A stretch of DNA of 64,000 nt from a virus (lineage: Duplodnaviria; Caudoviricetes): the IMG/VR virus record IMGVR_UViG_3300037249_000698, positions 1 to 64,000 of that record. One strand, 5' to 3'. A program made the translations under genes and the position numbers. Positions 26,524 through 40,920 of this stretch are shown one piece after another. Numbering within the stretch: the stretch's first letter is position 1; every line of letters starts with the position of its first letter. The notes under the pieces are model-generated. The model had not been told where the DNA came from. It saw only the letters and a program-made list of their open reading frames with translations, and searched no databases.

Positions 26524-27060
26524 TTACTTCTCCCTAATTCCGAAAGGACACCATGTATCTTTCAGCTTAATTTCAAAATTTTCAAAAACGGATTTTGGTT
26601 CATACGCATAAGAACCTAACCATATCTTTTTGAGTTCTAGTGTCTCCAAATCGTAATCTATTCTCGTACAAAAACACTGTATGATATTCTTAGGGTATTT
26701 CTTTTCTCTTATGGTTAGTACCTTACCGACTAAACCACCGAACTCGCCAACATCAAGAACGTTTGCAAATTTTCTGTAACCACTGTCTAATTCAGATTTA
26801 GAATTGGATTTTAATGCGTATAATGGTAAAAAATAACGGAATTTTGCTATGCCATTGTATTCAAAACAAGCATCAGTATTATCAACAATGTTTGTTAATT
26901 TTCCTGTTTGTAGCTTGCGTAAATCACAAAATCTCTCAATATTATCACCGAAATAACCTATCTCGTTGATAAGTTTATATTCAGAACCTTTGATATTATT
27001 AAAGGCTTTTATATCCTCAATAGACCGTATTCTGCGGTCGAGCATTGTTAAACTAATCAT
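26524..27060 (-). CDS. paralogous family protein, copy 5
   Basis: LDRRIR...IGYF...FRYFLP...WCPFG. Confidence 0.8.
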   Translation of the reverse strand: MISLTMLDRRIRSIEDIKAFNNIKGSEYKLINEIGYFGDNIERFCDLRKLQTGKLTNIVDNTDACFEYNGIAKFRYFLPLYALKSNSKSELDSGYRKFANVLDVGEFGGLVGKVLTIREKKYPKNIIQCFCTRIDYDLETLELKKIWLGSYAYEPKSVFENFEIKLKDTWCPFGIREK

Positions 27061-27394
27061 GTATAACTCCTAATAGTTTTAAGTGTTTACGTGTTGTTAT
27101 TTTATCAACCTGCAAGTTTTTCAGCAAGACAAAAAATGCGAATATTCGATTGATTTCTGACTCGCTTAACATTTTTTCGTAAAACGGATTTTTTAAGTCA
27201 TGCAAAACGTTTTTCATCCAATGTTTTAAAACATAATCAGGAATTTCTTCTGTAAAACGGATTAAGCGAGTTAGAGTGTTATCTGACATATTTAGCAAAC
27301 CGAATATTGCTAGGTGCAGGTAACGATTAAATAATTCGTAATGTAATTCGTAATGGTCGAGTGGTCGCATCTGCCGTAATTTAAGTCGGTTCAT
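27053..27394 (-). CDS. hypothetical protein
   Basis: operonic ORF, ATGA overlap. Confidence 0.6.
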   Translation of the reverse strand: MNRLKLRQMRPLDHYELHYELFNRYLHLAIFGLLNMSDNTLTRLIRFTEEIPDYVLKHWMKNVLHDLKNPFYEKMLSESEINRIFAFFVLLKNLQVDKITTRKHLKLLGVIHD

Positions 27395-27852
27395 AGTTCT
27401 ATATCCGCTGTAATGGTTATTTCCCAATCAAAATCATCATCGTCTGTAACTCTATCAACATAAGAATTGCCAACACAACTATCTAACATTTGCTGATCAA
27501 ATACGTTATTGAACGTATCAAAATCAGTATCTTCATATAATCTAAAATTCATGTGTTCATAACCGTCAATATCAGAAATGCGAACTCTAACCTTTTCTAA
27601 AAGCACTTGCTCCGTATGTTTTATGCGTTCTAAAAATTCTCTTACTGTCTCTCGTGTATGAACATAAGATAAATGCTGTATAGATTTATCACCATGTTTT
27701 TGTCGCTCGTCTGTGTTCTTTGCAACAATTCGCATAAGATTGTATGCTCGATTAAAGCCTAACTCGTATGCCTGCTTAACAGAAATGTTTTCAGCGTCTT
27801 TACAATCTGTTCTAAACCAATTTTTCATCGCAATATCTTTTTTATTTACCAT
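27391..27852 (-). CDS. hypothetical protein
   Basis: GAGGT RBS. Confidence 0.7.
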   Translation of the reverse strand: MVNKKDIAMKNWFRTDCKDAENISVKQAYELGFNRAYNLMRIVAKNTDERQKHGDKSIQHLSYVHTRETVREFLERIKHTEQVLLEKVRVRISDIDGYEHMNFRLYEDTDFDTFNNVFDQQMLDSCVGNSYVDRVTDDDDFDWEITITADIEL

Positions 27853-28138
27853 AAACGTACCTCATTTTTATTATTTCCTCGTAACCTGAATGATACTTTG
27901 GAAAGCGTTTATGTAATACTTCAAACAATCTGTCCGCACGTCTTTTACGAATCTCTGTCTGAATAAAGGACTCTGTATAAAAAATCATCCGCTTGATGCC
28001 TGCTATTTTAGATAATTGATGTTTGTAATAGCCTTCATCAGAGTACCACTTACTAAGCTCTTGTGCCTCCTTTAATTCTTTTTCTAAAATGGATTTTAAG
28101 AACTTTAAATCTCTTTTTGCATCTGATAATCTACCCAT
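27842..28138 (-). CDS. basic hypothetical protein
   Basis: AAGGAG RBS before MGRL. Confidence 0.65.
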   Translation of the reverse strand: MGRLSDAKRDLKFLKSILEKELKEAQELSKWYSDEGYYKHQLSKIAGIKRMIFYTESFIQTEIRKRRADRLFEVLHKRFPKYHSGYEEIIKMRYVYGK

Positions 28139-28163
28139 TATTATCTCCTTATCCAAACGGATT

Positions 28164-28460
28164 TTACACACAACAATATTCTTCGTCAACACTTGGCTGA
28201 ATATTTATTTTGAATCTAAAATCACAAGCCATAATATCGAAACCACTAACAATCCAGTCTTTATACATCTGATAATGCGGTAATTTTGTAATGTCTGCCC
28301 ACGTTCTATCGGTAATAGTCAACACAACTTCCTCTAAAGAATCATCAAGATCACCGCCTTTAGGTATCATCTGCACATACACCTCGATAAACGGATCTTC
28401 ACGGCAGGTATCAATAAGCATCTCGACAAGTTCATGTAACGTTCTATAAGCCATATTCAA
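28164..28460 (-). CDS. hypothetical protein
   Basis: operonic ORF. Confidence 0.65.
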   Translation of the reverse strand: MNMAYRTLHELVEMLIDTCREDPFIEVYVQMIPKGGDLDDSLEEVVLTITDRTWADITKLPHYQMYKDWIVSGFDIMACDFRFKINIQPSVDEEYCCV

Positions 28461-28463
28461 CTC

Positions 28464-28844
28464 CTATAATGTAATATTCTTTAATAAACCTATTGAACAA
28501 TTTACAAGTTTTAACATTTCAGCTTGTGTTAGACAATCCTTTTCTGACAAACCGAATTTAACTCTATTTAAATTGTCTAATACACAGACTATGTTTGTCA
28601 AACGTTCATTATCAGAGTGTACTATTATTTTTAGGTTGGTCAGTTCCATTCCGTCATCACCGAATTTTAAGGAATCTGTTACTTCCTCAACGTCTGCATC
28701 CATAAACGGAATTAAATCATTTATGCGAGTTAAGTATGAATAATTTGGATTTCTGATGTAAACCCCAAAAGCAAAATCAGGTGCTTTGTTAAACTGGTCT
28801 ACAGTGAGTTTTCTGCTATCTAAATAATCTCTTAATTTAATCAT
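28464..28844 (-). CDS. hypothetical protein
   Basis: TAGGAG RBS. Confidence 0.7.
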   Translation of the reverse strand: MIKLRDYLDSRKLTVDQFNKAPDFAFGVYIRNPNYSYLTRINDLIPFMDADVEEVTDSLKFGDDGMELTNLKIIVHSDNERLTNIVCVLDNLNRVKFGLSEKDCLTQAEMLKLVNCSIGLLKNITL

Positions 28845-28865
28845 TGTTGTCTCCTAAGTAATGTT

Positions 28866-29078
28866 TTAATCAACATCTCGAACGCAAACGAATAAAGTAT
28901 CATTATGTGCGTTTAAAATAACAACTTCATCGTCTTGACAAATCTCATAGGCTTTTGATTTTAAAAGTTCCTGCCTTGAATTGCACTTGCCCATAAATAC
29001 ATGCTTTTTACCATCCCAAAAACGGATTTCTATTTTGCCTGATAAGGCGTGAACAATGTCTCTCAAACGGATAATCAT
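28866..29078 (-). CDS. hypothetical protein
   Basis: CAGGAGG RBS. Confidence 0.65.
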   Translation of the reverse strand: MIIRLRDIVHALSGKIEIRFWDGKKHVFMGKCNSRQELLKSKAYEICQDDEVVILNAHNDTLFVCVRDVD

Positions 29079-29094
29079 AAACCCTCCTGAATTG

Positions 29095-29280
29095 CTATCT
29101 ATTCTGTTCTAACTCATAGTTAGTGTAGTTATACCCAGTGTTATTGCAAGGCGTGTTAATCGCCCAAATAAAGGCTAAGAATGAGCCAATTAAAAAGTAT
29201 GTACGTCTGTAACTTGTGCTTCTCATATAACTAATTGCTAGATATACGGAAATAAACAAAAGTAATACTGACAAAAACAT
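29095..29280 (-). CDS. small membrane protein
   Basis: two hydrophobic stretches. Confidence 0.6.
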   Translation of the reverse strand: MFLSVLLLFISVYLAISYMRSTSYRRTYFLIGSFLAFIWAINTPCNNTGYNYTNYELEQNR

Positions 29281-29285
29281 TATGT

Positions 29286-29582
29286 TTACTCCTTAAAATT
29301 AGCTACAACATCTTCAAAAATGGTATATACGACTTCTACAGTCTTTGTATCGAGGTTAATCTTAGACAGATATTCACCATCACATAAAGCCTCCATACCA
29401 GCCTTACAAATATCACCAATGGTCACATCACAATCTTTGCGACATTCGTAAACATCAGTCAATACGTCAATCGCATCATCTGCATATTCAGCCAGATGCT
29501 TATTTTGACAGCAGTTTGTGATTACTTCTTCAATTTCAAACAGCATATCATTGTACTTACAAGTTCTTTCAAATTCGTTCAT
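29286..29582 (-). CDS. acidic hypothetical protein
   Basis: first gene behind promoter 29631-29659. Confidence 0.7.
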   Translation of the reverse strand: MNEFERTCKYNDMLFEIEEVITNCCQNKHLAEYADDAIDVLTDVYECRKDCDVTIGDICKAGMEALCDGEYLSKINLDTKTVEVVYTIFEDVVANFKE

Positions 29583-29630
29583 GGTTAAATCCTCTAATCA
29601 ATTACTTCTAATTCGTTAATCTATGTATTC

Positions 29631-29659
29631 ATTTTACTAAAGTTTATTTCAATAGTCAA
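29631..29659 (-). promoter_or_regulatory. sigma70 promoter
   Basis: TTGACT-N17-TAAAAT. Confidence 0.75.
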
Positions 29660-29667
29660 CAAAAATT

Positions 29668-30378
29668 TTATACCAAAATCGGATTTGTGATAGTTGTCAC
29701 TTTTTCAATTTCTGACATAGCTACATCGTAATACTTTTTGTCTATCTCATAGCCTATAAACTGCCGACCTGTGAGCATACACGCTATTGCCGTACTGCCA
29801 CACCCGACAAACGGATCTAAAACAATCTCATTTTCTTTAGTGCTATTCAGAATTAAATGTTTTAATAATTCAACAGGTTTTTCAGTAGGATGTAATTTAT
29901 TTCCTAGCTTGTTACGATATTCGAGTACAGTATTACTACCTAGCATGTTAATGTTCTTTGCACCACCTTTTCTAAGCATAAGGATAAACTCGGCTCTGTT
30001 CATGTAATACTTGTTAGGAACGGAATTTTGCTTTACCCAAACTAATAGATTTTGATAAATAAAGCCTGCTTTTAATGCTTCTGTAGTAAGTTCATTTAAT
30101 CTTCTACCCGAACAGAAAATATAAGCGTGTGATTTAGGTTTAAGCACTCTATACACATCAGACAGCCAATCGGAAAATTTAATCGAATTATGGTCAAAAA
30201 CTCTACCGTGTTTAACGTTAGATAATTCGCTATGTTTATTCCCTAGCATACCGCCTAAAGGTTTTGTGCAACCGCCTTGTACTATAAGATAAGGGGGATC
30301 GGTAACTAATAAGTCAATAGAGTTATCGGAAACGGATTTTAATTCCTGTTTCATATCAGAATTTTTAAGTGTAATCAT
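29668..30378 (-). CDS. N4-C/N6-A DNA methyltransferase (beta class)
   Basis: VTDPPY, HPTEKP, LDPFVGCGST, GYEID. Confidence 0.92.
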   Translation of the reverse strand: MITLKNSDMKQELKSVSDNSIDLLVTDPPYLIVQGGCTKPLGGMLGNKHSELSNVKHGRVFDHNSIKFSDWLSDVYRVLKPKSHAYIFCSGRRLNELTTEALKAGFIYQNLLVWVKQNSVPNKYYMNRAEFILMLRKGGAKNINMLGSNTVLEYRNKLGNKLHPTEKPVELLKHLILNSTKENEIVLDPFVGCGSTAIACMLTGRQFIGYEIDKKYYDVAMSEIEKVTTITNPILV

Positions 30379-30439
30379 AGCAACCTCTAAAGGGGGTATA
30401 TACAAAAAGTTAAACGGTCATATACCCCGAAAACGGATT

Positions 30440-31168
30440 TTAATTATTAGATTCAAAAAGGGATTCTTCATCAAGTTCAACAGTCTCAACGGTAACATTA
30501 TCTTTATTTGTAATGTCTTTCCCTAAAATTGCGAACTTTACTTTCCAACGTAAATAAGCCGGAGAGCGTAAAACCTCCTCAATTTTCTTTAATCTTTCCA
30601 CAGGATTTTTATTTTCCTTTAAAATCTTTGCGACAGTAGTTCTTGAAACACAATAATGCTTTTCAATTTCCCTAACACTGGTAAATTCTTTATTACCAAT
30701 CATATAATGATGCTTTAAATCCTTTGTTAAAGCGTCTTTTATACTAAAGTTGCGGTTTAATCGTAAAGATACCGTATTATTTTTTACACCCCAGTATTCC
30801 GCACGTTCTTTGTGAGACTTAAACTTGTTACCCAAGTGATCCTCACATTCTTTTTCTACAGACTGCACAGGTGTATTCAGAATTTTATCTAAATTCCATC
30901 CCTGTTTCAGTCTATGAAAATATGTCGGCTTATCAATTCCGTATTCCTTGCATAACTCATAGATATTTCTATAATGTTTGCCACCGTAATTTACGCCACC
31001 GCTTTTATACGTGCGAGAGTTTGTTGTTAAAGCTCGTTCTAAATCCCATTTATAACGGAGTCTCGCTCGGACAGTCACCGCATCAATACCATAGTAATCG
31101 CACATGTCGTTAAAAGATGGAAATTCATTTCCTAAATGATCGCAAACGTTCTTTTTTGCCATATTCAC
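30440..31168 (-). CDS. protein with repeated HTH-like DNA-binding modules
   Basis: repeats DHLGNxFxS...R.RL..GW.LE.AL. Confidence 0.65.
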   Translation of the reverse strand: MNMAKKNVCDHLGNEFPSFNDMCDYYGIDAVTVRARLRYKWDLERALTTNSRTYKSGGVNYGGKHYRNIYELCKEYGIDKPTYFHRLKQGWNLDKILNTPVQSVEKECEDHLGNKFKSHKERAEYWGVKNNTVSLRLNRNFSIKDALTKDLKHHYMIGNKEFTSVREIEKHYCVSRTTVAKILKENKNPVERLKKIEEVLRSPAYLRWKVKFAILGKDITNKDNVTVETVELDEESLFESNN

Positions 31169-31199
31169 CTCGATAGATATTTGTTAAATGATGTTTGAA

Positions 31200-31228
31200 A
31201 TTATAATAGAAATAAAAGTTCATGTCAA
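31200..31228 (-). promoter_or_regulatory. sigma70 promoter (leftward)
   Basis: TTGACA-N17-TATAAT. Confidence 0.85.
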
Positions 31229-31261
31229 CAAAATTTTAATAAAATTTAATTTAACCGTAAA

Positions 31262-31446
31262 GAAACCCAACTGCCTAAATGAACACGGCAACCGAAATGG
31301 ATTTTGTGCAAAAGGGGGGGGTCAAGCCAAATGAAAAGGGCAATCAGCCTAAATGGATAGTGCCGACCCACCGCCCGACCCTGCCGACCTGTGCCAAGAG
31401 CCAATGAACCGGAAACCTAGCGACCTACTGGGTGAATGTGACCTGC
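31262..31446. repeat. GC-rich repeat island at the strand switch
   Basis: 5x RCC(N)AAATGRA-like, 4x CGACC, G8 run. Confidence 0.65.
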
Positions 31447-31520
31447 ATCACTATTTTAGTCCGGCTATTTAGTAAACGGATTTTAAAAATTCATTCCTAT
31501 ATAGATGTATAAACCGCAAA

Positions 31521-31581
31521 AGTGACTTATATCACAAATTTCAAACTTACTATTGACAAATAAAAACTGTTATGCAATAAT
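31521..31581 (+). promoter_or_regulatory. early promoter with CRP-like site
   Basis: AGTGA-N6-TCACA; TTGACA-N17-AATAAT with TG extension. Confidence 0.75.
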
Positions 31582-31616
31582 GACATCATGTTGATAACAC
31601 ATAAGGAATTAAACAA

Positions 31617-32027
31617 ATGAATAAAACAGAATTAAAAAACAGATTATCTAAAATTATTGATAGTTTTGAAAGCAGTTATGATGCGGATGATTATTATGAA
31701 TTAACATCTCGATATGGGTGTGATTGTGATCCCGAATGTAAAATTTATCAGTTAGAAGAATTAAACGATCTATATTGCGGTTATACAGTCTTAAATATTT
31801 TAGATGAATTAAAAGACATAGATACTGGAGATACATATTTTTGTTACACTATTTATGGTATAGAGTCTTTTACATGCTTTAGGGATATTAAGCGTCATTT
31901 AGAATATGAAAAGATTGTCGATATTATCCTAAAAGATATTGATATTTTCTTAGATTGTGATTTTTATAGTTCAGAATTGACCGATCTTCAAAATGAATTA
32001 TATGATGATGAAATAACAGAAGATTAA
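31617..32027 (+). CDS. acidic early protein
   Basis: own promoter and RBS; D/E rich. Confidence 0.8.
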   Translation: MNKTELKNRLSKIIDSFESSYDADDYYELTSRYGCDCDPECKIYQLEELNDLYCGYTVLNILDELKDIDTGDTYFCYTIYGIESFTCFRDIKRHLEYEKIVDIILKDIDIFLDCDFYSSELTDLQNELYDDEITED

Positions 32028-32035
32028 AATTATTG

Positions 32036-32073
32036 TTGACAATTTAAAATGATAGGTATATAATGTACCTATC
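32036..32073 (+). promoter_or_regulatory. early promoter, -10 inside inverted repeat
   Basis: TTGACA-N17-TATAAT; GATAGGTA/TACCTATC. Confidence 0.85.
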
Positions 32074-32096
32074 TTTTGAAAACAGGAGTTAAAGAT

Positions 32097-32420
32097 ATGG
32101 AAAAGAATTTAATTGCAAAGTGTGTTGATATTGTTAAACAAGGGGATATTGAAGATCGTTATCCTTTTGAAATGAGTGTGTATTTAATATACGATAACGG
32201 CACTTGTGAAAACGATGAAATGTATCAAATGTCATGCGATGATATGGAATTTGTAACAGGTATGAAAATTGAAGAATTAAACGGATTATCTGATATTGAA
32301 ATTGCTAGAATTATTGCGGAAAATTCCCATCCATACGGCATCGGAGATGAACAGGATGTGTATGATTATTATTCTAGCGGATTACGTTATTATTCTAATA
32401 CTATTGCTATTAAATTATAG
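32097..32420 (+). CDS. acidic early protein
   Basis: CAGGAG RBS. Confidence 0.8.
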   Translation: MEKNLIAKCVDIVKQGDIEDRYPFEMSVYLIYDNGTCENDEMYQMSCDDMEFVTGMKIEELNGLSDIEIARIIAENSHPYGIGDEQDVYDYYSSGLRYYSNTIAIKL

Positions 32421-32428
32421 GTGACTAT

Positions 32429-32731
32429 ATGAACAAAATTACAGATGATATTGAAAAATTAGCTACTGAATGTACTAACAAATTACAAGATTTAACAGGC
32501 TATAACTATGTAATTAAACCATCCACAGGAGGCACAATACAGTTAGATATTTATGAGTCTTTAGAAGATAGTGATCTCTATTTAGCAAACATCACATATA
32601 AATCAAGACATGATTTGTATGATAGATTAGTGATATTCAAAAACAGTTTAGATATACTAAATTTGATAACTGATAATAATACTAGACAAGCTGTAGAATG
32701 TTACCTGTTTAACATTTTCAATACTTACTAA
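32429..32731 (+). CDS. early hypothetical protein
   Basis: TAGGTG RBS. Confidence 0.7.
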   Translation: MNKITDDIEKLATECTNKLQDLTGYNYVIKPSTGGTIQLDIYESLEDSDLYLANITYKSRHDLYDRLVIFKNSLDILNLITDNNTRQAVECYLFNIFNTY

Positions 32732-32740
32732 AATTTATTG

Positions 32741-32769
32741 TTGACAAATGGATTTTATTATCGTAAAAT
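32741..32769 (+). promoter_or_regulatory. early promoter
   Basis: TTGACA-N17-TAAAAT. Confidence 0.8.
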
Positions 32770-32802
32770 ATGGTTATCAATTTGGTTAAGGAGCAAACAC
32801 AA

Positions 32803-33351
32803 ATGAAATTTTTTAAAAATACTGAATGTGCATTAAAAGAAGATTTAGAAAGTCTTGTAAAAAATAGTATGAATCTAGATACTTTTATCAAATTGTATAA
32901 CTATGATAATACTAATAGCATAATACCATTTTCAGAAATAGATCGCTTTATGCAGGATATTATTTTTGATTGTTACGGCAATTATGATTTAATACTCGCA
33001 AATATTAAGAAGCTAAAAGAAATCAAACAACAATTAAAAGCGAATGATTTTGATATTTTTACAGAAGATCATGATGATCAATCGGACTTGTATTTTATTA
33101 TAAACGGAAATGATATAAAGGATTATTTCTTTGCACATGAATTTGAAAATTTATATGAAGATGAATCCACAAGTAACAAGTTATTATTAGATGCTTGTGA
33201 ACTTGTAATTAACAATATACTTGCAAGTTATAAAGCGTATTTATCACTTGTTGAAAGGATGAATAAAATTAATGATGTGAAAAATGATGTTACTATCAGA
33301 TTAGAAAACCTGTTACGCTGTTATGATGAATTATGCAAACTTGAAAAATAA
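32803..33351 (+). CDS. early hypothetical protein
   Basis: AAGGAG RBS. Confidence 0.8.
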   Translation: MKFFKNTECALKEDLESLVKNSMNLDTFIKLYNYDNTNSIIPFSEIDRFMQDIIFDCYGNYDLILANIKKLKEIKQQLKANDFDIFTEDHDDQSDLYFIINGNDIKDYFFAHEFENLYEDESTSNKLLLDACELVINNILASYKAYLSLVERMNKINDVKNDVTIRLENLLRCYDELCKLEK

Positions 33352-33363
33352 TCAAAATATTTG

Positions 33364-33406
33364 TTGACAATTAAAATAAGATATAGTAATATATACTATA
33401 TCTTAT
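33364..33406 (+). promoter_or_regulatory. early promoter, -10 inside inverted repeat
   Basis: TTGACA-N17-TAATAT; ATAAGATATAGTA/TACTATATCTTAT. Confidence 0.85.
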
Positions 33407-33904: not shown

Positions 33905-34423
33905 ATGAACACATCAATTATAAAACATGCTAACGTACGTAACATTAAAGACAAAACTGTTGTTGATGTTGATTACGGATTGGAATATATAAAAGGAAAT
34001 AGGGATGCATATTTCTTTATAACCGGCACTGAATATCATGCAAATAAAAACGGTGAACGTGATGCAAGGCGTAAAGATTGTATTCAGTGCGGAGCAATAG
34101 GAGAATATATTTGTACCTTAAACAAAAATTTTGAAGATTTAAATCACTTTCATGGTAGATATGCGGATGGATCTCCATTATATCCTGTTGAAAATGGTTT
34201 GTTTTGGTTAGGTTGCACTAAATATGAAGCGTTTAATTTAAAATACGTGTGTGAACATTTTATGATAAATGAACAGGAGGCATACAGACTTAAAGATATT
34301 ATTCATTCAGAAATGGATGATAATAAAAAGCGTGAAATTTTACAAAATATTATTGATACTGAATATAAAAGTAAATGGTTAGCGGAGGCAAAACGGATTC
34401 GAGATAAGTATAACTTGTGGTAA
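33905..34423 (+). CDS. early hypothetical protein
   Basis: YFFITG...CGAI...GSPLYPVENGLFW. Confidence 0.8.
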   Translation: MNTSIIKHANVRNIKDKTVVDVDYGLEYIKGNRDAYFFITGTEYHANKNGERDARRKDCIQCGAIGEYICTLNKNFEDLNHFHGRYADGSPLYPVENGLFWLGCTKYEAFNLKYVCEHFMINEQEAYRLKDIIHSEMDDNKKREILQNIIDTEYKSKWLAEAKRIRDKYNLW

Positions 34424-34440
34424 AAAATTTAAAATAACTA

Positions 34441-34482
34441 TTGACAATACAAAAAGGATAGAATATAATGTATCTATCCTTT
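34441..34482 (+). promoter_or_regulatory. early promoter, -10 inside inverted repeat
   Basis: TTGACA-N17-TATAAT; AAAGGATAGA/TCTATCCTTT. Confidence 0.85.
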
Positions 34483-34518
34483 AGAAACAAAGCGAGTTTA
34501 ACACAAAAAGGAATTATT

Positions 34519-34836
34519 ATGGAAACTATTAAAGAAGTACGACAGGATATTAAAAACAAATTAGAAGCTATAAATCAAGATGATTACATGGTAGAAAATG
34601 ACTTAAAATTAGTATTTGCTCCATCCTGTGGTAAATATCGTATCGAATTAACAGGGAGTGTAAACAAGGTATTTTTTGCACATAATCTCCGTGAATACAA
34701 GCTATGTTTATATAATTTTCACTCTTTAACTTGGATTTTGAGTAGACATTATAAGAATCCTAACACTGATGATGTTTTATCTATACAAAGTGTTATTGAA
34801 CTTTTGGAGCATTGCGGATTTTATTATTATTGTTAA
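34519..34836 (+). CDS. early hypothetical protein
   Basis: AAGGAA RBS. Confidence 0.75.
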   Translation: METIKEVRQDIKNKLEAINQDDYMVENDLKLVFAPSCGKYRIELTGSVNKVFFAHNLREYKLCLYNFHSLTWILSRHYKNPNTDDVLSIQSVIELLEHCGFYYYC

Positions 34837-34852
34837 ATTTTAAAAATAGTTG

Positions 34853-34893
34853 TTGACAAATAAATTAAGATAGTGTATCATAACACTATCTTA
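34853..34893 (+). promoter_or_regulatory. early promoter, -10 inside inverted repeat
   Basis: TTGACA-N17-TATCAT; TAAGATAGTGT/ACACTATCTTA. Confidence 0.85.
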
Positions 34894-34922
34894 TAAAGAA
34901 AACCTAACAGGAGTACCAAAAA

Positions 34923-35621
34923 ATGGGATGGGATGGAATTTATATCAGTGAACCGCACAAAACTGTATCTGAAAAGTTATCTGTATATTTCAAGTATCAC
35001 GGATTTTGTGAAAATGAAGTTGTAAAAGCTACTATCAAAAATGGTGTTGTTTACGGAGCAATCCGGAACTTAAAAACAAATGATGTATGGGCTATGGTTA
35101 GTTTGTTAAAATTCAGAAAGGATGGATGGCAAACTGAAATGCTAGTAAAAAATATGAGTGAAGATATGATGCCGTATTATTTTGATTGCCCTAAAGCTAT
35201 ACTTGATTTATTGACAAAAACTGATAATGAACATTCTAACGAATGGAGAAAAAGATGCTATGAACAGTTAGCAAACCAAAAGGAAAAAGCAAAAGTAAAA
35301 AAGAGTCCATATATTTTTGTAAAATCCGGTATTAGATTTAGCATGGGTTGTACTTATCATGTGTTTGAAAAAGATTCTACTATGCGAACTAAATATCATA
35401 CCTTTGAAACAGGATATGGATTAAGAATCAGTCATATAAATGATTTTGATGTGCAGTACATATCAGAAGAACAATATTTAAGATGTAAGGATGCATATTA
35501 TAAGATTAGGGATGCTAAAATTTTAGTAGAGTATGAAAAGACTAACGATCCGGAAATGATTAAATTATCACAATTAGAATTATGTGATGTATATCAAAAT
35601 ATTATAAATCAGACTGAATAA
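34923..35621 (+). CDS. DUF6927-like protein
   Basis: MGW start; KNMSEDMMPYYFDCPKAILDLL...EWR. Confidence 0.65.
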   Translation: MGWDGIYISEPHKTVSEKLSVYFKYHGFCENEVVKATIKNGVVYGAIRNLKTNDVWAMVSLLKFRKDGWQTEMLVKNMSEDMMPYYFDCPKAILDLLTKTDNEHSNEWRKRCYEQLANQKEKAKVKKSPYIFVKSGIRFSMGCTYHVFEKDSTMRTKYHTFETGYGLRISHINDFDVQYISEEQYLRCKDAYYKIRDAKILVEYEKTNDPEMIKLSQLELCDVYQNIINQTE

Positions 35622-35624
35622 TTA

Positions 35625-35667
35625 TTGACAAATAAAACTAGATAGATTAAAATAAATCTATCTAGTT
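35625..35667 (+). promoter_or_regulatory. early promoter, -10 inside inverted repeat
   Basis: TTGACA-N17-TAAAAT; AACTAGATAGATT/AATCTATCTAGTT. Confidence 0.85.
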
Positions 35668-35684
35668 AGCAAGGGAGTTATATT

Positions 35685-36107
35685 ATGGGATATGAAGTAA
35701 GGGATGTGTTTGATATATTAGAAAAAGAATTAACAGATTATTTTTTGTCTTTACCTGTTGAAAAGCAAGTACCATTAATAAATGAATATTATAACACTAT
35801 TAAAATTATAAAATTAACAGATTGTCTATCAGATGATCAAATGGAAAATTTTTATAAAAAAGTTGAAAATTTATATGTAGTATTTTTTGGTAAAACTACA
35901 TTAGAACCGATTATTTATACAAAAACGGAATTGATAAAACAAGACTGGTTTATACATGCCATTAAAACATTATGTTATTGTTATGATAAATTTTCTTTTG
36001 ATGATATTGAAGATTCTCATATTCAAGATATTATTATAACTATGCAAAATGTCGCAAGGGCAATAGACAAAATTAAAAATCAAAAAGTTGAAATAATTTT
36101 AAAATAA
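35685..36107 (+). CDS. early hypothetical protein
   Basis: AGGGAG RBS. Confidence 0.8.
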   Translation: MGYEVRDVFDILEKELTDYFLSLPVEKQVPLINEYYNTIKIIKLTDCLSDDQMENFYKKVENLYVVFFGKTTLEPIIYTKTELIKQDWFIHAIKTLCYCYDKFSFDDIEDSHIQDIIITMQNVARAIDKIKNQKVEIILK

Positions 36108-36110
36108 TAG

Positions 36111-36152
36111 TTGACAACAAATAAAGATAGTATTATAATGATACTATCTTTA
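36111..36152 (+). promoter_or_regulatory. early promoter, -10 inside inverted repeat
   Basis: TTGACA-N17-TATAAT; TAAAGATAGTAT/ATACTATCTTTA. Confidence 0.85.
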
Positions 36153-36171
36153 ATACAGGGAGTAATAACAA

Positions 36172-36648
36172 ATGATGATAGATTTAGAAATTATTATTGA
36201 AGAATTAGATCGCTTTTATAACGTTCACTGTTTAGAAAATGATAGATTAAACAAGTTTTCAAAGTGCATTATTGAAGATGCAAAAAGAATGATAACAAAT
36301 GTTATTTCAGACTATGGATTTGAAATTGAGTCTAAACAGGAATTAGCAAAACGGATTTCAAAAAACAGATATGAATATTTAGATCTCACAAAATTTGCGG
36401 AATTAATATCATCCTGTAGTATTGATGCGGAAATTTGCACAGATACAATTTATAAAAGATATTTATCAGATAATCTGTATAATGCGTATAAGAATGAAGA
36501 TCCAAGTTTTGAAGATGCTAGAAAACGTATGATCGGATATAGACAAAATATGACTGATATTTATTTAGAGGCTAAAAGTTATGCTAAGGCATGGCAAAAA
36601 ATCGAACGTATTATTGATGATATAGAAGAATTTAAACTAACACATTAA
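36172..36648 (+). CDS. early hypothetical protein
   Basis: AGGGAG RBS. Confidence 0.8.
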   Translation: MMIDLEIIIEELDRFYNVHCLENDRLNKFSKCIIEDAKRMITNVISDYGFEIESKQELAKRISKNRYEYLDLTKFAELISSCSIDAEICTDTIYKRYLSDNLYNAYKNEDPSFEDARKRMIGYRQNMTDIYLEAKSYAKAWQKIERIIDDIEEFKLTH

Positions 36649-36656
36649 AATAATTG

Positions 36657-36697
36657 TTGACAAGTTTTGTGAGTAGTAGTAAAATACTACTCATAAA
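36657..36697 (+). promoter_or_regulatory. early promoter, -10 inside inverted repeat
   Basis: TTGACA-N17-TAAAAT; TGAGTAGTA/TACTACTCA. Confidence 0.85.
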
Positions 36698-36719
36698 CCA
36701 AAAACAGGGAGTTAAAATT

Positions 36720-37253
36720 ATGAATGATTGTGAATATATAAAAGACTTTTGGACTAATGATGATGTTAGAATTGTTTACAGTACAGACTTTTTGAAACAG
36801 GATAAGGAAAACGATTTTAAAAAAGCTATTGAAAACCTGTATGAATATATGGTAAACGGAGATTTTGAAACAGAATTTGATTTTGATGTAGAAAACGATT
36901 ATTGCATCTTATGTGAAGAATATCCGGAACTTGAAACATATAATATCTTGCATCGTATGGGGGATTTAGACTCATATTGTGAAGAATTTAATATAACAAT
37001 TAGTAACTTTTTGGAAAATATGGATGATAGCTTTAGTTTGTGCGATAATTATTTTTGTGATAGTAGACAATATATAAGCGGAGATAGTTTAACTAGTTTT
37101 AATATTGATTATTTAGATATTGTTAGACAAATAGCATTTTCACCGGAAAAATTACTACAATTTGAAAACGGAAAAAACATTATTTTAAAAAATTTAGATT
37201 GTGACCATTTAAAAAAGATACTTATTGATATTCTAAACTGTATTGAAAAATAA
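36720..37253 (+). CDS. acidic early protein
   Basis: AGGGAG RBS; weak similarity to 31617. Confidence 0.8.
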   Translation: MNDCEYIKDFWTNDDVRIVYSTDFLKQDKENDFKKAIENLYEYMVNGDFETEFDFDVENDYCILCEEYPELETYNILHRMGDLDSYCEEFNITISNFLENMDDSFSLCDNYFCDSRQYISGDSLTSFNIDYLDIVRQIAFSPEKLLQFENGKNIILKNLDCDHLKKILIDILNCIEK

Positions 37254-37256
37254 ATC

Positions 37257-37299
37257 TTGACAATATTTTTAAAGTAGTATAGATAATTCTATACTACTT
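37257..37299 (+). promoter_or_regulatory. early promoter-like element with inverted repeat
   Basis: TTGACA; AAGTAGTATAGA/TCTATACTACTT; -10 poorly spaced. Confidence 0.6.
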
Positions 37300-37319
37300 A
37301 ATAAAGTAAAGTTATAGAT

Positions 37320-37412
37320 ATGGAGAAAAACGGATTGTATTATTTTTGCTTAATTATTCTTTTATCATTCCTGTTTGTTATTGATAACATTCTTTTACAG
37401 ATAATGAGATGA
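37320..37412 (+). CDS. 30-aa hydrophobic peptide (not in ORF track)
   Basis: MEKNGLYYFCLIILLSFLFVIDNILLQIMR; weak RBS. Confidence 0.35.
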   Translation: MEKNGLYYFCLIILLSFLFVIDNILLQIMR

Positions 37413-37444
37413 TAAACGGAATTTAAATTTTTTTAAAATAGTTA

Positions 37445-37473
37445 TTGACAAAAGAAAAATAGTATATTATCAT
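37445..37473 (+). promoter_or_regulatory. early promoter
   Basis: TTGACA-N17-TATCAT. Confidence 0.8.
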
Positions 37474-37558
37474 ATATAGCATAGTAACGGAGCAATATCA
37501 AAAAGTTAAACCTGTTACTGATTAAAAAACGGATTATAAATAAAAGGAATATAACACT

Positions 37559-38587
37559 ATGAATACTAAAATTGAAACTCTTATTAAAAAATCACTCTGT
37601 TTAAACTCTAATACCAATAAAGTTTTAGTTAGTCAAAAAGACAATATTTTGACTCTTGAAACATCAAACTTTATGGTTAAAATTCCTGTTAATAGTAATG
37701 AAACATTTGAAGGTTTTACAAGTTCTGATATTATTAAATCTAACAGTATTGATAATATTAAATTTATCACTCGAATTGAAGATACTTCAAACGAATATAG
37801 ACACGAATTTAAAACTTATTCCAAAAAGGTAGTTATTAATCCAGTAAATTTTAAAAAGTTATTATTACAGAAAACACAGAGTAATAATGCAAATATTTGT
37901 GATGCCGTATGGTTTAATTACGATAATATGTATGAAACAAACGGACATTACATCATAGCTATAAATAACGCTTATTCAGAAAACGATTGTACTTTTGGAA
38001 TAGATAAAAAGATTGTAGAACTATTAAAAAATTGTACTGAATACTTGTTTGTAAGTTATGAAAATAATGATACAGATTATCACAAATCACAAAATACCAG
38101 TATAGAATTAAATATTGACGGAATACTATTTCATTATAATTCAGTAATTACTATTTGTGATTTTAAGTCTATGATCCATAATGCTATGAGTTTTAAATCA
38201 CAAATTTTAAAGGAATACAAGTTTGACAATTTAAAGGAATTTTCAAAACTGTTAGCGAGTGCTAAAAACGATGAAAAAAGGATTGTATTAGATTTTAAAA
38301 AGGATAAATTGACCGCATATAACATCTTTAATGCAGGTACTATAAACAATTATAAAATGAGTGAGATCGGCACATGTAACAGTAATTATCATTCAGATGA
38401 TGAATTAAATAGAATTGTAATTGATAGTAACTATGCAAAAAAGATAAAAGATGCGATTAAAAATGATGCGGAAATATTATTAAAATTAGAGGGAGATAAA
38501 AGATACGGAATAAATAAAATGACCATTAGAAATAGTAATTTGACTTTAATTATTATGGGAGTTGTGAATTGTAATTTTATTGAATAG
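37559..38587 (+). CDS. divergent beta sliding clamp (DnaN)-like protein
   Basis: ETNGHY ~ ATDGHR, IDSNY ~ FNxxY, LIIMGV ~ YVVMP; 342 aa. Confidence 0.5.
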   Translation: MNTKIETLIKKSLCLNSNTNKVLVSQKDNILTLETSNFMVKIPVNSNETFEGFTSSDIIKSNSIDNIKFITRIEDTSNEYRHEFKTYSKKVVINPVNFKKLLLQKTQSNNANICDAVWFNYDNMYETNGHYIIAINNAYSENDCTFGIDKKIVELLKNCTEYLFVSYENNDTDYHKSQNTSIELNIDGILFHYNSVITICDFKSMIHNAMSFKSQILKEYKFDNLKEFSKLLASAKNDEKRIVLDFKKDKLTAYNIFNAGTINNYKMSEIGTCNSNYHSDDELNRIVIDSNYAKKIKDAIKNDAEILLKLEGDKRYGINKMTIRNSNLTLIIMGVVNCNFIE

Positions 38588-38669
38588 TCATAAAAATTAT
38601 AGGGAGTATATATGAATACTCCCTATTAAATCAGTATGAAAAACGGATTAAAAATTTTTAAATTTTTTA

Positions 38670-38698
38670 TTGACAATAAAAAGTCATTGTAGTATCAT
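38670..38698 (+). promoter_or_regulatory. early promoter
   Basis: TTGACA-N17-TATCAT. Confidence 0.8.
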
Positions 38699-38740
38699 GT
38701 ATTCCATACGATGAACGGATAACAAATACGGAGTAACGAT

Positions 38741-39094
38741 ATGAATACTTTAAAAGATTTAATTAAAAATTCATTCCATAATTTTAATGAAAAATTTTCT
38801 TTATTAAAAAATGATGTTTTCTATACTGTAGAGATCCAGTATGATTTAAATGTGGAATATTCAGATCCGGAAATTGTTGTATGTATGGAGACAAAAAAGC
38901 ATAAAATTGAATTTAGTTTTCATTTGAATAGTTTTTTTAATGATTATTATAATGGGGATAATTTTGAAAAACAGTATAATCATTTTCAAAATTCTGTTTT
39001 AAACTCTATTAGAAACAGATATTCATTTGTTAAACATAATGATGATAGTTTTATTAAAAAGTGCTTTTTTGGAGGTCAATATATATATTACTAA
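38741..39094 (+). CDS. early hypothetical protein
   Basis: ACGGAG RBS. Confidence 0.75.
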   Translation: MNTLKDLIKNSFHNFNEKFSLLKNDVFYTVEIQYDLNVEYSDPEIVVCMETKKHKIEFSFHLNSFFNDYYNGDNFEKQYNHFQNSVLNSIRNRYSFVKHNDDSFIKKCFFGGQYIYY

Positions 39095-39139
39095 TAATGT
39101 GATACAGGTCATAAAACGGATTATTTTAAAATTGACCTG

Positions 39140-39168
39140 TTGACAATTAAAAAACAATATGCAATAAT
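39140..39168 (+). promoter_or_regulatory. early promoter
   Basis: TTGACA-N17-AATAAT with TG extension. Confidence 0.75.
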
Positions 39169-39200
39169 ATATTCATGTTTTGAGATATGGAGTAAACAAT

Positions 39201-39440
39201 ATGACTAATAAAGAATTTAGCGAATACAGATCCGGCAAAAAATGTGCTTCAGAATATATCATGGAGCTTGTCAATATACGTGTATATAATCCGGATAGTT
39301 TAACATCAAGACAATTAAAACAGATTATTAAAGATAAAATTGATTTATCAAATAAGTTAATTACTGATAATAATCAAGTATCATTTAATCAAGGTTATAA
39401 ACATACTATGGAGGATTTTTTACACTTCATCACAAAATAA
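39201..39440 (+). CDS. early hypothetical protein
   Basis: ATGGAG RBS. Confidence 0.75.
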   Translation: MTNKEFSEYRSGKKCASEYIMELVNIRVYNPDSLTSRQLKQIIKDKIDLSNKLITDNNQVSFNQGYKHTMEDFLHFITK

Positions 39441-39452
39441 ATCAAATAGTAA

Positions 39453-39494
39453 TTGACAATTAAAAAAGATAGTATTATGATAATACTATCTTTT
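39453..39494 (+). promoter_or_regulatory. early promoter, -10 inside inverted repeat
   Basis: TTGACA-N17-TATGAT; AAAAGATAGTATTAT/ATAATACTATCTTTT. Confidence 0.85.
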
Positions 39495-39513
39495 AGAAAA
39501 CAGGAGCAAAAAA

Positions 39514-39840
39514 ATGACTATTAAAAGATCTGATATTGATTTTCTTGTAAATGATATAAATGAACAGTTAAAAAATTTTTATTTATCAAATATAGATAAA
39601 ATTGTCGCTAGAAAAGATCAAAAAGGATTCTGTATTGAATATATAATTAATGGTAAACAATCAAATAGTTTTTATGCTAACCTTAGTAAAAATCAGATTT
39701 ATATTTTTCTTGAAACATTAAACAGGTTATTATATAAAAATGTGACCATAACAGGATGCACAGATACCGAAGATCAGAAAAAAGGCAATACAGATTTAAT
39801 CGTTAATTTGATTGAATTTTGGAATAAATCAAATATATAA
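39514..39840 (+). CDS. early hypothetical protein
   Basis: CAGGAG RBS. Confidence 0.8.
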   Translation: MTIKRSDIDFLVNDINEQLKNFYLSNIDKIVARKDQKGFCIEYIINGKQSNSFYANLSKNQIYIFLETLNRLLYKNVTITGCTDTEDQKKGNTDLIVNLIEFWNKSNI

Positions 39841-39868
39841 AATGTGGAAATAAATCACAAAATTTTAA

Positions 39869-39934
39869 AAATAGTGTTTGACAATAAAACAAAATTAGTT
39901 TAGAATGATACTCATAAATCGTTAAACACTATTT
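39869..39934 (+). promoter_or_regulatory. early promoter enclosed by inverted repeat
   Basis: TTGACA-N17-TAGAAT; AAATAGTGTTTGAC/GTTAAACACTATTT. Confidence 0.8.
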
Positions 39935-39947
39935 AAGGAGTACAAAA

Positions 39948-40259
39948 ATGATTATTTTAAACACTGAAAACAAATTAAAACTTGAAATTATTTACAATGT
40001 AATTAGTTCTATTATTTATGATTACAGAGTAACTTTAAATTTAAGTGCTAGATACAGAATTGAATTTTCATGCGATAAAGGTATTGTATCCGCTGTATTC
40101 TTAGATAATGATGAAGAAGTAATTAAATGCGATACTTTTAAGGATATATCCTTTTATAAAATGTTTTATGGATTCGTAAACGGCATTATTATTGAATATG
40201 CTTATAACGATATAGTAATTGAACAGGAGCACAAAATTATTGCCACAATAAAAATCTAA
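39948..40259 (+). CDS. early hypothetical protein
   Basis: TAAGGAG RBS. Confidence 0.8.
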   Translation: MIILNTENKLKLEIIYNVISSIIYDYRVTLNLSARYRIEFSCDKGIVSAVFLDNDEEVIKCDTFKDISFYKMFYGFVNGIIIEYAYNDIVIEQEHKIIATIKI

Positions 40260-40277
40260 CAGGGATCACAAAATTTA

Positions 40278-40315
40278 ATAGTGCTATTGACAACAAAATT
40301 GAATAGCACTATAAT
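40278..40315 (+). promoter_or_regulatory. early promoter with inverted repeat across -35/-10
   Basis: TTGACA-N17-TATAAT; ATAGTGCTATT/AATAGCACTAT. Confidence 0.85.
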
Positions 40316-40356
40316 AAAAACAGTTAAACGGATAAAACAATACAGGAGCTAAAGCT

Positions 40357-40614
40357 ATGAACAAATCATTATTAGTTAAAAGTGCGTATATTAAACTTGA
40401 AAACAATGATGCTTATATTGTAAGGCAGTATGAAGATCGATTAAGTTTAGAGTTTAGTCCGGCGGGGGATCGTGAATTTTACGAAGTGCGGATTTCTCCT
40501 GTATTGAATAGCTTTATTAAATTGATTCAATGGTATAAGGCAGTAGAAAATTACAAATTTATTCAGATTGCCTACCGTCATTCTAAGGAATTTTTAAAAG
40601 TAAAAACAATTTAG
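40357..40614 (+). CDS. early hypothetical protein
   Basis: CAGGAG RBS. Confidence 0.75.
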   Translation: MNKSLLVKSAYIKLENNDAYIVRQYEDRLSLEFSPAGDREFYEVRISPVLNSFIKLIQWYKAVENYKFIQIAYRHSKEFLKVKTI

Positions 40615-40635
40615 TTGTATTGTACTCCAGTGATT

Positions 40636-40664
40636 AAAGGGACTAATTTTTTAGTCCCTTTTTT
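40636..40664 (+). terminator. intrinsic terminator
   Basis: AAAGGGACTAA/TTAGTCCCTTT + T run. Confidence 0.85.
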
Positions 40665-40920
40665 GTTATTCCAGAAAAAACATAAAATTTAATACAGGGA
40701 CTATAAATTATTTGAAACAGGATAATTAAAACCAAAAACGGATTAAAAGTTATATTATAAAAATTACCATAAAGGGATTATAAATTATTCAGATAAATAT
40801 AAATAATTGTGTAAACGGATTAAATTTTAAAGGGATTTTAAAAATTAAAAGTCAAGTAAATTAAATCAAAAATTAGATAAAAGTCACAAAATATTTTGAA
40901 TGATAAACGGATTATTAAAT

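Follow-up and report, generated by a model that had tools for sequence, protein, structure and literature searches.

A polar nine-base word fills a bounded zone beside a candidate genome end in a large phage and its relatives

KOPS (GGGNAGGG) and SRS (GAGAAGGG) are asymmetric 8-bp words whose orientation guides a DNA translocase, FtsK and SpoIIIE respectively. Both are G-rich, extend over the whole replichore and switch polarity at dif. The iterons of phage P4 ori and crr, octamers bound by the alpha primase-helicase, form clusters of direct repeats in non-coding DNA that extend over a few hundred bp only. In the E. coli lambdoid phage LLS, 20 of 23 copies of Chi (GCTGGTGG) are on the top strand (3 on the bottom) and are concentrated at the right end, and in Pseudomonas phage MD8 the counts for the Chi word GCTGGCGC are 32 and 0 (Genome Res 2025, PMC12315714). 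For these phages the word is the known Chi of the host, and a cos end and dependence on RecBCD are established. The left terminal repeat of T5 contains pre-early genes and conserved untranslated repeat regions with DnaA boxes, which have been proposed to be an injection stop signal and whose elements are far better conserved than the ORFs of the terminal repeat (bioRxiv 10.1101/866236). Strand specificity in a large lytic siphovirus genome is seen at the locus described here and also in the single-strand nicks of T5 and BF23 virion DNA, those of T5 falling at a few major sites spread genome-wide (PMC10644984).

The window analysed is a stretch of 64,000 nucleotides (positions 1 to 64,000 of IMG/VR record IMGVR_UViG_3300037249_000698, Caudoviricetes) of a 95,133-bp phage genome. 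Between 26587 and 40913 the + strand has 20 copies of AACGGATT and the − strand none, against approximately 0.27 copies expected from the local base composition of this 14.3-kb interval. A preliminary description of the window had listed these copies by eye and put the expectation at under one; all of its coordinates are correct, including that of the one other + copy (18133), and the four − copies that it reported outside the zone are at 1638, 5215, 51718 and 55715. No further copies are found in the remainder of the genome. Counting both strands of the window, there are 25 copies, whereas dinucleotide shuffles gave 2.3 on average and never more than 10. The shorter word AACGGA is equally polar within the zone (36 on the + strand, 0 on the −, two-sided binomial 3e-11) and is balanced in the 79.5 kb beyond it (16 and 19). 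Its density is 3-9 per 2.5 kb across the 15 kb left of 41360, after which it is at background level. For AAACGGA, 30 of the 32 + copies genome-wide fall in the zone, where − copies are absent.

A closer inspection revealed that the longer conserved word is the 9-mer AAACGGATT, of which there are 18 exact + copies, all within the zone. When one mismatch is allowed, the zone (26586..41181) contains 40 sites on the + strand and a single site on the − strand, at 28535. The many one-off variants noted previously are real, and they differ mostly at position 4 (AAATGGATT, AAAGGGATT, AAAAGGATT) or in the last two bases. Across 126 distinct sites the informative core is approximately 10-11 bases, (A)AAACGGATT(Y)T, with flanks that carry no information and no dyad symmetry. 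In being short, asymmetric and held in one orientation (a 9-10 nt core without a dyad, with a polarity of 36:0 or 40:1), the word resembles Chi.

The sites are unevenly arranged within the zone. One group, cluster B (40736..40913), packs five + sites into a non-coding 178 bp, at 40736, 40771 (AAAGGGATT), 40813, 40829 (AAAGGGATT) and 40905, with gaps of 35, 42, 16 and 76 bp. It is preceded by a terminator (40636-40661) and followed by the promoter of gene 41033. Counterpart clusters of 4-6 copies occupy the same place in the relatives L127, L128, L129, L130 and rel1. Gaps in the clusters of relatives are approximately 7-51 bp; neither these nor the 16-76 bp gaps of cluster B are phased with the helix. 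This irregular, unphased spacing is easier to reconcile with independent sites for a tracking enzyme than with a cooperative array. An intergenic + strand trio (37328..37535; 37328, 37414 (AAACGGAAT) and 37527) is situated upstream of gene 37559. Another trio (30330..30465; 30330, 30431 and 30457, all +) lies where the DNA methyltransferase gene meets the HNH gene; both genes are on the − strand, so that the sites are antisense to them. This trio is possibly the counterpart of a cluster A that relatives carry (seen in L129). The intergenic + site at 39114 is within the loop of an 8-bp hairpin (ACAGGTCA / TGACCTGT, 39105..39140) which, as read from the sequence, is directly upstream of a TTGACA −35 box. 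Loop placement of this kind was also observed in L014 and L040. A divergent switch at 31200..31581 consists of consensus sigma-70 promoters, leftward at 31228-31200 and rightward at 31553-31581, and the word stays + oriented on both of its flanks.

The word is independent of both reading frame and transcription. Sites are found in all three frames, both sense and antisense to genes, and approximately 16 sites in the window are either antisense or in untranscribed spacer and have no strong promoter of the + strand on their left. The distance to the nearest −35 box ranges from overlap up to 80 bp. With no fixed orientation or distance relative to transcription units, the word does not behave as a promoter, operator or RNA motif. 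The enrichment also persists under the codon-aware null that had been proposed as a check. When synonymous codons were shuffled within each of 29 genes, the 11 copies of AACGGATT in coding sequence compared with a mean of 1.5 and the 18 copies of AAACGGA with a mean of 3.2, and neither observed count was reached in any of 2000 shuffles.

The same word, polarity and bounded zone (roughly 10-20 kb) were found again in at least five diverged relatives. In rel1, whose TerL shares 79% amino acid identity, all 12 + copies of AACGGATT are contained in 15236-27579, across its own divergent switch, and the single − copy is outside the zone. The counts on the two strands are 8:0 and 6:0 in L127 and L128 (53-57% identity in the anchor protein), 12:0 in L129 and 18:0 in L130. 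In rel2 (contig C48 of the metagenome-assembled genome G001) AAACGGA is present 35:0 within 28959-46432. G404 has 43 copies on one strand against 2 on the other, with 38 in 15.5 kb. In G405 the counts are 15 and 5, and 14 of those 15 copies fall within the final 9.6 kb. Positional and strand bias, whose absence from relatives would have counted against the preliminary description, are thus both kept, and the word is kept exactly while early ORFs fall to 30-35% identity or are absent.

The genes inside the zones differ. In the window the zone covers early ORFans, and the replication genes are outside it and carry no copies. The zones of rel2 and G404 cover RecT, helicase, primase and thyA with the word on the sense strand; that of G405 covers the same genes with the word on the antisense strand. 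The earlier tie between the zone and the early region does not hold, given that primase, helicase and thyA are included in relatives. In particular, thyA has six copies of AACGGA in rel2, where it is within the zone, and none in the window, where it is outside. The rel2 copies arise through the choice of GGA and ATT codons together with Asp-to-Asn replacements. Since word, polarity and bounded zone recur while the genes inside differ, the word is a DNA-level signal that is placed by position. That the signal is read as DNA had been suggested before; sites in every frame and on both gene strands, and the same replication genes carrying it sense or antisense, bear this out.

In the window the zone is adjoined by an AT-rich untranslated region (41360..42330, 17-28% GC, AT palindromes at 41840-41890), which starts 180 bp past the last site and is faced by the 3′ side of the word. 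An untranslated region of this kind, with the word pointing toward it, adjoins the zone in the window, rel1 and rel2, where flanks are known; in rel2 the comparable AT-rich stretch follows the zone at the contig end. Moreover, the zone is at one extreme end of three long linear contigs and points outward in each (C48, 49 kb; G404, 77 kb; G405, 72 kb). Contigs ending beside the zone and the adjoining untranslated region hint at a genome end nearby, and 41360..42330 is a candidate for a genome end, a repeat boundary or an origin. The gene that probably encodes the small terminase (48966-49439) is found 7 kb rightward of this region, and the lysis genes between the two lack the word; a lambda-like cos or pac site beside the terminase genes would thus not agree with an end here.

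Of the published systems, the end-clustered, one-strand Chi sites of LLS and MD8 appear to be the best match to the zone. As in those phages, approximately 20-40 copies of a short asymmetric word are almost all on one strand and concentrated in one part of the genome, near a putative end in the present case, are found inside genes in any frame, and have the same proposed orientation logic, with the 3′ side toward an open end. In contrast, the DNA end and the enzyme are putative here, and the word, an AT-rich one of 9 nt, shows no enrichment in the bacterial genomes sampled. The inner border of the zone is sharp, and the phage is of a 95-kb lytic type with its own RecT and Cas4-type exonuclease, whereas phages of the LLS class are without any recombination module.

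T5 offers a second comparison. In both cases an early region dense in strong sigma-70 promoters adjoins an untranslated region of approximately 1 kb, short cis elements are much better kept than adjacent ORFs, and a conserved array of 9-bp protein-binding words (binding is putative here) is found in untranslated early DNA beside promoter-rich genes. In T5, however, the elements comprise inverted repeats, palindromes and paired DnaA boxes and are restricted to untranslated regions, whereas here a single word in one orientation is spread over 15 kb of coding DNA and a terminal repeat is only putative. KOPS and SRS share with the word its occurrence inside genes in any frame. Translocase guidance of their type fits less well, as the word is not replicon-wide, occupying one bounded phage zone without a polarity switch, outside which AACGGA is balanced. 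The preliminary inference of polar sites is borne out in part, namely for a polar signal at the DNA level and for Chi as the best published match; nicks, guidance of a translocase as by KOPS and a host nucleoid protein are hypothetical or fit less well.

The word may represent Chi-like sites for a helicase-nuclease that enters at the nearby putative DNA end, and we tentatively favour this reading. We infer the end, the enzyme and the switch as follows. An enzyme of the RecBCD or AddAB kind would enter at a double-strand end made at or near 41360-42330, this being a virion end, a terminal-repeat boundary or a packaging cut. Moving leftward, it would meet the word from its 3′ side on the 3′-ending (+) strand and there stop degrading DNA and begin to generate a recombinogenic 3′ tail. 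Several chances of recognition in the first kilobase would come from cluster B, with the scattered sites as a back-up across the following 15 kb. The exposed end would thereby be protected and concatemers could form through recombination. Against this, simple decay with distance from an end does not predict the sharp inner border. To our knowledge all Chi words are G-rich and 5-8 nt long, and the AT-rich 9-mer is unlike every one of them. Within G001, which holds phage contigs and may not be the host, the ratio of AACGGATT to an order-3 Markov expectation is 1.2 (rank 15,284 of 60,876). Among 401 Clostridia genomes, which may not include the host, the densest two (G295 and G382) show no order-3 Markov excess either, and none reaches a Chi-like density, the maximum being approximately 60 per Mb.

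The main alternative, which is possible if on balance doubtful, is that the polar signal serves DNA machinery of the phage itself within a physically defined terminal domain, either a long direct terminal repeat or the segment that enters first or is packaged last, as in T5 or SPO1. The sites would be read by a packaging motor or terminase close to the genome end, or by a protein pulling or braking DNA in ejection, or would be primase starts needed only on the strand displaced during terminal-repeat duplication. The zone has sharp borders on either side and a similar length in several phages (approximately 12-20 kb), as expected of a terminal repeat or fixed segment. The contrast between an exactly kept word and diverging or vanishing early ORFs is one that T5 also shows, and the lack of enrichment in G001 and in the 401 Clostridia points the same way. 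Irregular triple clusters of the word are limited to this phage family in IMG/VR, other hits being regular tandem repeats, which leans toward a family-specific reader, and in L040, L141 and rel2 the clusters follow immediately after the primase-helicase gene. Yet the terminal repeat and the end are putative, the assembly closes circularly with a 127-bp overlap, and the strongly conserved neighbour gene at 42332 has no homologue in the examined part of the zone-bearing rel1. We are not aware of any packaging motor, primase or ejection system in which a 9-bp word is repeated some 40 times.

It is unlikely, in our estimation, that the word is instead a private 'self' code of the phage family, read by a conserved phage protein and not by a host Chi enzyme. 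The reader would be a helicase acting with the neighbouring Cas4-type nuclease and RecT, or the primase-helicase, or the packaging motor, and DNA with correctly oriented AAACGGATT near an end would be handled unlike host DNA. For example, a phage nuclease might halt on phage DNA yet destroy the host chromosome; alternatively, terminal-repeat duplication or recombination might be steered to one strand. If this is true, the phages would encode a Chi-like system that uses a sequence of its own.

A sequence-specific DNA-binding protein assembling along the region is a decidedly unlikely reader of the sites. Such a protein could be a replication initiator with iteron clusters, its origin beside the AT-rich region as at P4 ori and crr, or a partition-type or silencing protein, nucleating at the clusters and covering the domain as a head-to-tail filament that could explain the single orientation. 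As with the P4 iterons, direct 8-9-bp repeats (4-6 copies per cluster) are found in non-coding DNA adjoining the AT-rich region, in some relatives beside the large primase-helicase gene, and a consensus promoter directed into the cluster gives L127 and L128 the arrangement of an origin activated by transcription. However, that transcription is not conserved, since a terminator precedes the cluster in the window. Regular, helically phased repeats within a few hundred bp were not found, even though the clusters are near AT-rich DNA: spacing is irregular and no multiple of the helical repeat, and more than half of the sites are single, lying scattered over 15-20 kb of coding sequence at a polarity of 40:1, unlike iterons.

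A signal in RNA, whether a site for an RNA-binding protein or cleavage or a seed that pairs both early transcript sets, is highly improbable. The constant orientation across the divergent switch means that rightward transcripts carry AAACGGAUU and leftward ones its complement. CsrA sites have GGA within hairpin loops; some intergenic sites are held in such loops, the variable fourth base leaves GGA untouched, and the cluster is downstream of a strong promoter in L127 and L128. Nevertheless, the sense word of rel2 and G404 is antisense in the orthologous replication genes of G405, the approximately 16 antisense or untranscribed sites of the window are at odds with a transcript signal, and orientation tracks the neighbouring untranslated region rather than transcription. 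On this comparative evidence an RNA-level role seems unlikely. Restriction by Type III and Type ISP enzymes requires two sites in opposite orientation, between which they cut, and T7 keeps its EcoP15I sites in one orientation only. Selection to escape them does leave one-strand polarity of an asymmetric short word, yet as a by-product of this kind the zone is scarcely credible, since removal of one orientation does not raise the other ~70-fold over expectation, the recognition sites (5-7 bp) are shorter than the 9-mer, and neither confinement to one 15-kb domain nor site-creating amino acid replacements would be explained.

If the word is the Chi of the host, which is probably a ruminant-gut bacterium, the phage reveals the recombination hotspot of an uncultured organism, one that is AT-rich, 9 nt long and unlike any described Chi. 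The strategy of end-clustered Chi would then extend from temperate lambdoid phages to a large family of lytic type, and the word would offer a means of linking phage and host from sequence only. If the reader is a phage protein, the word would be a new kind of cis-acting code marking a terminal genome domain, strong enough to override protein sequence, as in the Asp-to-Asn changes of thymidylate synthase. Under either reading, the position of the genome end or of the terminal-repeat boundary can be predicted from the zone.

The preliminary description had placed 20 plus-strand copies of the octamer AACGGATT between 26587 and 40913; all of its coordinates proved right, and none was found on the minus strand. 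Elsewhere in the window the octamer occurs on the plus strand at 18133 only and on the minus strand at 1638, 5215, 51718 and 55715, again as first listed, and the remaining 31 kb of the genome holds no further copy. From local base composition, 0.27 copies would be expected there, in agreement with the original estimate of less than one. What is conserved is a 9-mer, AAACGGATT, longer by one base than first reported, and all of its exact plus-strand copies (18/18) lie inside the zone (26586-41181). The one-off variants that had been noted by eye are present, since 40 plus-strand sites in the zone are within one mismatch of this 9-mer, with one such site on the minus strand. Of 32 plus-strand copies of AAACGGA, 30 fall in the zone, and none occurs there on the minus strand. 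The shorter AACGGA splits 36:0 between plus and minus strands within that stretch (two-sided binomial, 3e-11) and 16:19 across the 79.5 kb outside the zone. When 126 distinct sites, drawn from the phage and from its relatives, were combined in a frequency matrix, only ~10-11 bases, (A)AAACGGATT(Y)T, proved informative, with no dyad symmetry.

Zone sites occupy all three reading frames. They are on the sense strand of the rightward genes (31.6-41.4 kb) and on the antisense strand of the leftward ones (26.5-31.2 kb), and 14 of the 40 are intergenic. When synonymous codons were shuffled inside each of 29 genes, the enrichment persisted: none of 2000 shuffles reached the counts observed in coding sequence on the plus strand, either for AACGGATT (11 against a shuffle mean of 1.5) or for AAACGGA (18 against 3.2). 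A protein-motif artefact is thus ruled out, all frames being occupied and the shuffles failing to yield the counts. Composition is ruled out by the ~70-fold excess over local expectation together with the polarity, and a promoter element by the lack of any constant orientation or distance. Most likely the signal is read from a single strand, or by something that moves one way along the DNA, and is set by distance from a landmark on the 3′ side of the motif.

Searched by megablast against 50,697 phage records, the zone retrieved no cultured close relatives, and the best matches to TerL were only ~45% identical. The word, its strand and its bounded zone are kept in every relative whose corresponding region was retrieved. 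Relatives lacking the strand and positional bias had been anticipated as grounds for abandoning the idea; instead both are retained. In rel1, a 93-kb relative with a TerL 79% identical and early proteins 30-35% identical or missing, two overlapping loci were merged into 39 kb, and all 12 plus-strand copies of AACGGATT fall within 12.3 kb across the divergent switch, the sole minus-strand copy lying outside. The related contigs L129 and L130 have ratios of 12:0 and 18:0, with copies on both flanks of the switch. A contig with 81% portal identity carries three exact 9-mers on the plus strand and none on the minus, all within 3 kb upstream of its homologue of gene 42332. Two Logan contigs (anchor protein 53-57% identical) have AACGGATT at 8:0 and 6:0, each with a cluster of 5-6 copies within a long untranslated stretch. 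The strand-polar word is therefore real, strong and conserved. A second short word, (G)AAAAGCTG, lies between AAACGGATT copies in clusters of L129 (10600-10720, 4560-4640) and of L127 (6980-7110), one of those two Logan contigs, and is not obvious in the window's own cluster (40736-40913). In L127 the dUTPase gene is separated from the lysis genes by one for an IS605-type OrfB/TnpB (Cas12f-like) protein (13397-14638).

The zone is placed by position rather than by genes. In rel2, a 49-kb phage contig (C48) in the Eubacteriales MAG G001, AAACGGA is found at 35:0 within 28959-46432, on the sense strand over RecT, exonuclease, helicase, primase, thyA and the genes downstream, stopping ~1.8 kb short of AT-rich untranslated DNA at the end of the contig. 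The orthologues of these genes in the 95-kb genome, at 0.3-12 kb and 92 kb, are essentially motif-free. The thyA gene of rel2 has six copies of AACGGA and its orthologue in the present phage has none, the enzymes being 67% identical; the rel2 sites come from the choice of GGA and ATT/TTT codons and from Asp-to-Asn replacements (GAT GGT to AAC GGA). A 77-kb relative with the layout of rel2 (G404) has 43 copies on one strand and 2 on the other, 38 of them within 15.5 kb, whilst in a 72-kb relative (G405) the zone is antisense to the same replication genes and points toward the contig end. Leftward from the untranslated region, tabulated density stays level at 3-13 sites per 2.5 kb, over 15 kb in the window and 20 kb in rel2, beyond which it falls abruptly to background. 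Readings tied to transcription direction or to gene class are therefore excluded.

The genome, one 95,133-bp contig that assembles as a circle through a 127-bp overlap of its ends, belongs to a large tailed phage. It encodes a primase-helicase (4022-7015), further replication and nucleotide functions (helicase, Cas4-type exonuclease, RecT, ligase, dNMP kinase, thymidylate synthase and a tRNA cluster) and packaging and structural proteins (TerL at 49547, portal, major head protein). On the minus strand, nrdD (anaerobic ribonucleotide reductase) is in two pieces (genome 86.9-89.8 kb; L136:2876-5754), parted by an HNH/I-HmuI-like homing endonuclease gene. Consensus promoters drive the leftward genes from 31228 and the rightward genes from 31553. 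Between them, the intergenic region (31240-31450) has a GC-rich stretch, odd in a genome of 25-33% GC, with a G8 run and repeated CCGACC/GCCGACC, and it matches no Rfam family. The rightward arm to 41 kb (23-28% GC) has ~18 near-consensus sigma-70 promoters, one small ORFan behind each. About 15 early promoters (32024-40989) share a longer template, TTGTTGACAA, a 17-bp spacer and a TATAAT-like box, and in many the -10 box is the centre of a palindrome, perfect or nearly so (e.g. AAAGATAGTATTATAATGATACTATCTTT at 36123-36151), which looks like a common operator for a putative dimeric repressor. Five minus-strand paralogues of 174-224 aa (20551-27060; genes 20551, 23822, 25168, 25994 and 26524) all match one rel1 gene, a local family expansion at the left border of the zone. 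Searches of the zone proteins against PHROGs and Pfam identified a DNA methyltransferase and an HNH endonuclease only, the others being ORFans, and Rfam and tRNA scans found nothing that accounts for the zone. Directly to its right is a 1-kb untranslated region (41360-42330; 17-28% GC) with AT palindromes, containing no block conserved across relatives that would qualify as cos or pac. Beyond this region come a handful of small genes, then those for lysis, a gene that probably encodes the small terminase, and TerL. Reverse copies of AACGGATT (window 51718 and 55715; merged rel1 37164) lie mostly in structural genes up to ~14 kb right of the untranslated region; they could form a faint mirror-image set of opposite facing, the 2 observed against ~0.3 expected being too few to weigh.

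Among published patterns, the best match is the clustering of Chi at the ends of phage genomes: the lambdoid phage LLS has 20/23 Chi octamers on its top strand, massed at the RecBCD-open end, and Pseudomonas phage MD8 carries host Chi at 32:0 by strand (PMC12315714). The zone word agrees with these in number, polarity, frame indifference and clustering. For these reasons, and because spacing within clusters is irregular, in keeping with sites that a tracking enzyme encounters independently, a Chi-like mechanism is tentatively placed first, at somewhat short of an even chance. In its AT-rich composition and its length of 9 nt the word differs from known Chi sequences, and those of E. coli, B. 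subtilis, S. aureus and L. lactis show neither polarity nor enrichment in these phages.

That AT-rich 9-nt word, and probable terminase genes 7 kb away, leave ample room for a reader encoded by the phage itself, for which the word would be a terminal-repeat-specific, packaging, ejection or priming signal; we regard this as the main rival, a serious possibility though less likely than the Chi-like mechanism. A long terminal repeat would naturally yield the sharp borders and the similar length of the zone in several phages, and T5, with short cis elements conserved beside fast-evolving early ORFs, is the nearest analogy. Also in favour of a phage-encoded reader, IMG/VR scans for word pairs and triplets gave mostly coding tandem repeats or chance matches unrelated to this phage, with irregular clusters in this phage family only, and the word is unexceptional in the bacterial genomes sampled. 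Its ratio to an order-3 Markov expectation is 1.2 in the bacterial contigs of G001 (the GTDB species-representative 'Eubacteriales bacterium fecal_MAG_27'), which may not be the host, and of 401 Clostridia genomes sampled, among which the host may not be, the two richest in the word show no excess of it. G001 holds at least three contigs of the family (C31, C48, C107) and may be its host, or these may be misbinned; an endolysin profile matched, among species genomes, only small phage-like contigs in Eubacteriales, Bacteroidales and Dyella MAGs. In four large first contigs of Clostridia genomes (G361:C1, G128:C1, G287:C1, G235:C1) the first nine AAACGGATT among the matches listed are all on the plus strand (0.3-2 Mb), which suggests that in this class the word keeps to one strand, possibly the leading one, or may reflect purine and gene-orientation skew only. 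A literature search for the word itself returned primer lists only. The product of gene 42332 is an unlikely reader, since it has no family and no homologue in the examined part of rel1. This gene and 42716 (42332-43096) have 88-93% DNA identity to a relative whose structural genes reach only ~71%, with 98% identity for the 42332 protein, which would point either to unusual constraint or to recent exchange.

Iteron-type or silencing arrays would explain why clusters adjoin AT-rich DNA and, in some relatives, the primase gene, but irregular spacing and scatter across 15-20 kb make them improbable. A signal acting in RNA is very hard to sustain, as the same genes switch between sense and antisense sites among relatives. 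Restriction-escape polarity, which cannot produce a 70-fold excess, is the least credible.

As for the Chi-like reading, a polar DNA signal of this kind near a genome end had been proposed from the outset. The polar DNA signal is upheld by the frames, the codon null and the relatives; its likeness to Chi and its nearness to an end are only partly supported, and are the best available account. A helicase-nuclease would enter through a DNA end in the untranslated region or close to it and, moving along the 3′-ending strand, would reach the word with its 3′ side first. In rel2, G404 and G405, which are long linear contigs, the zone lies at one extreme end and points outward, which lends indirect support to an end or discontinuity there. 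The probable terminase genes lie 7 kb past the untranslated region, with lysis genes free of the motif between, and cos or pac of the lambda type, placed at those terminase genes, would be at odds with the zone. The Chi-like reading would therefore need a T5- or SPO1-like layout for these phages, in which an end or terminal-repeat boundary lies beside the early genes.
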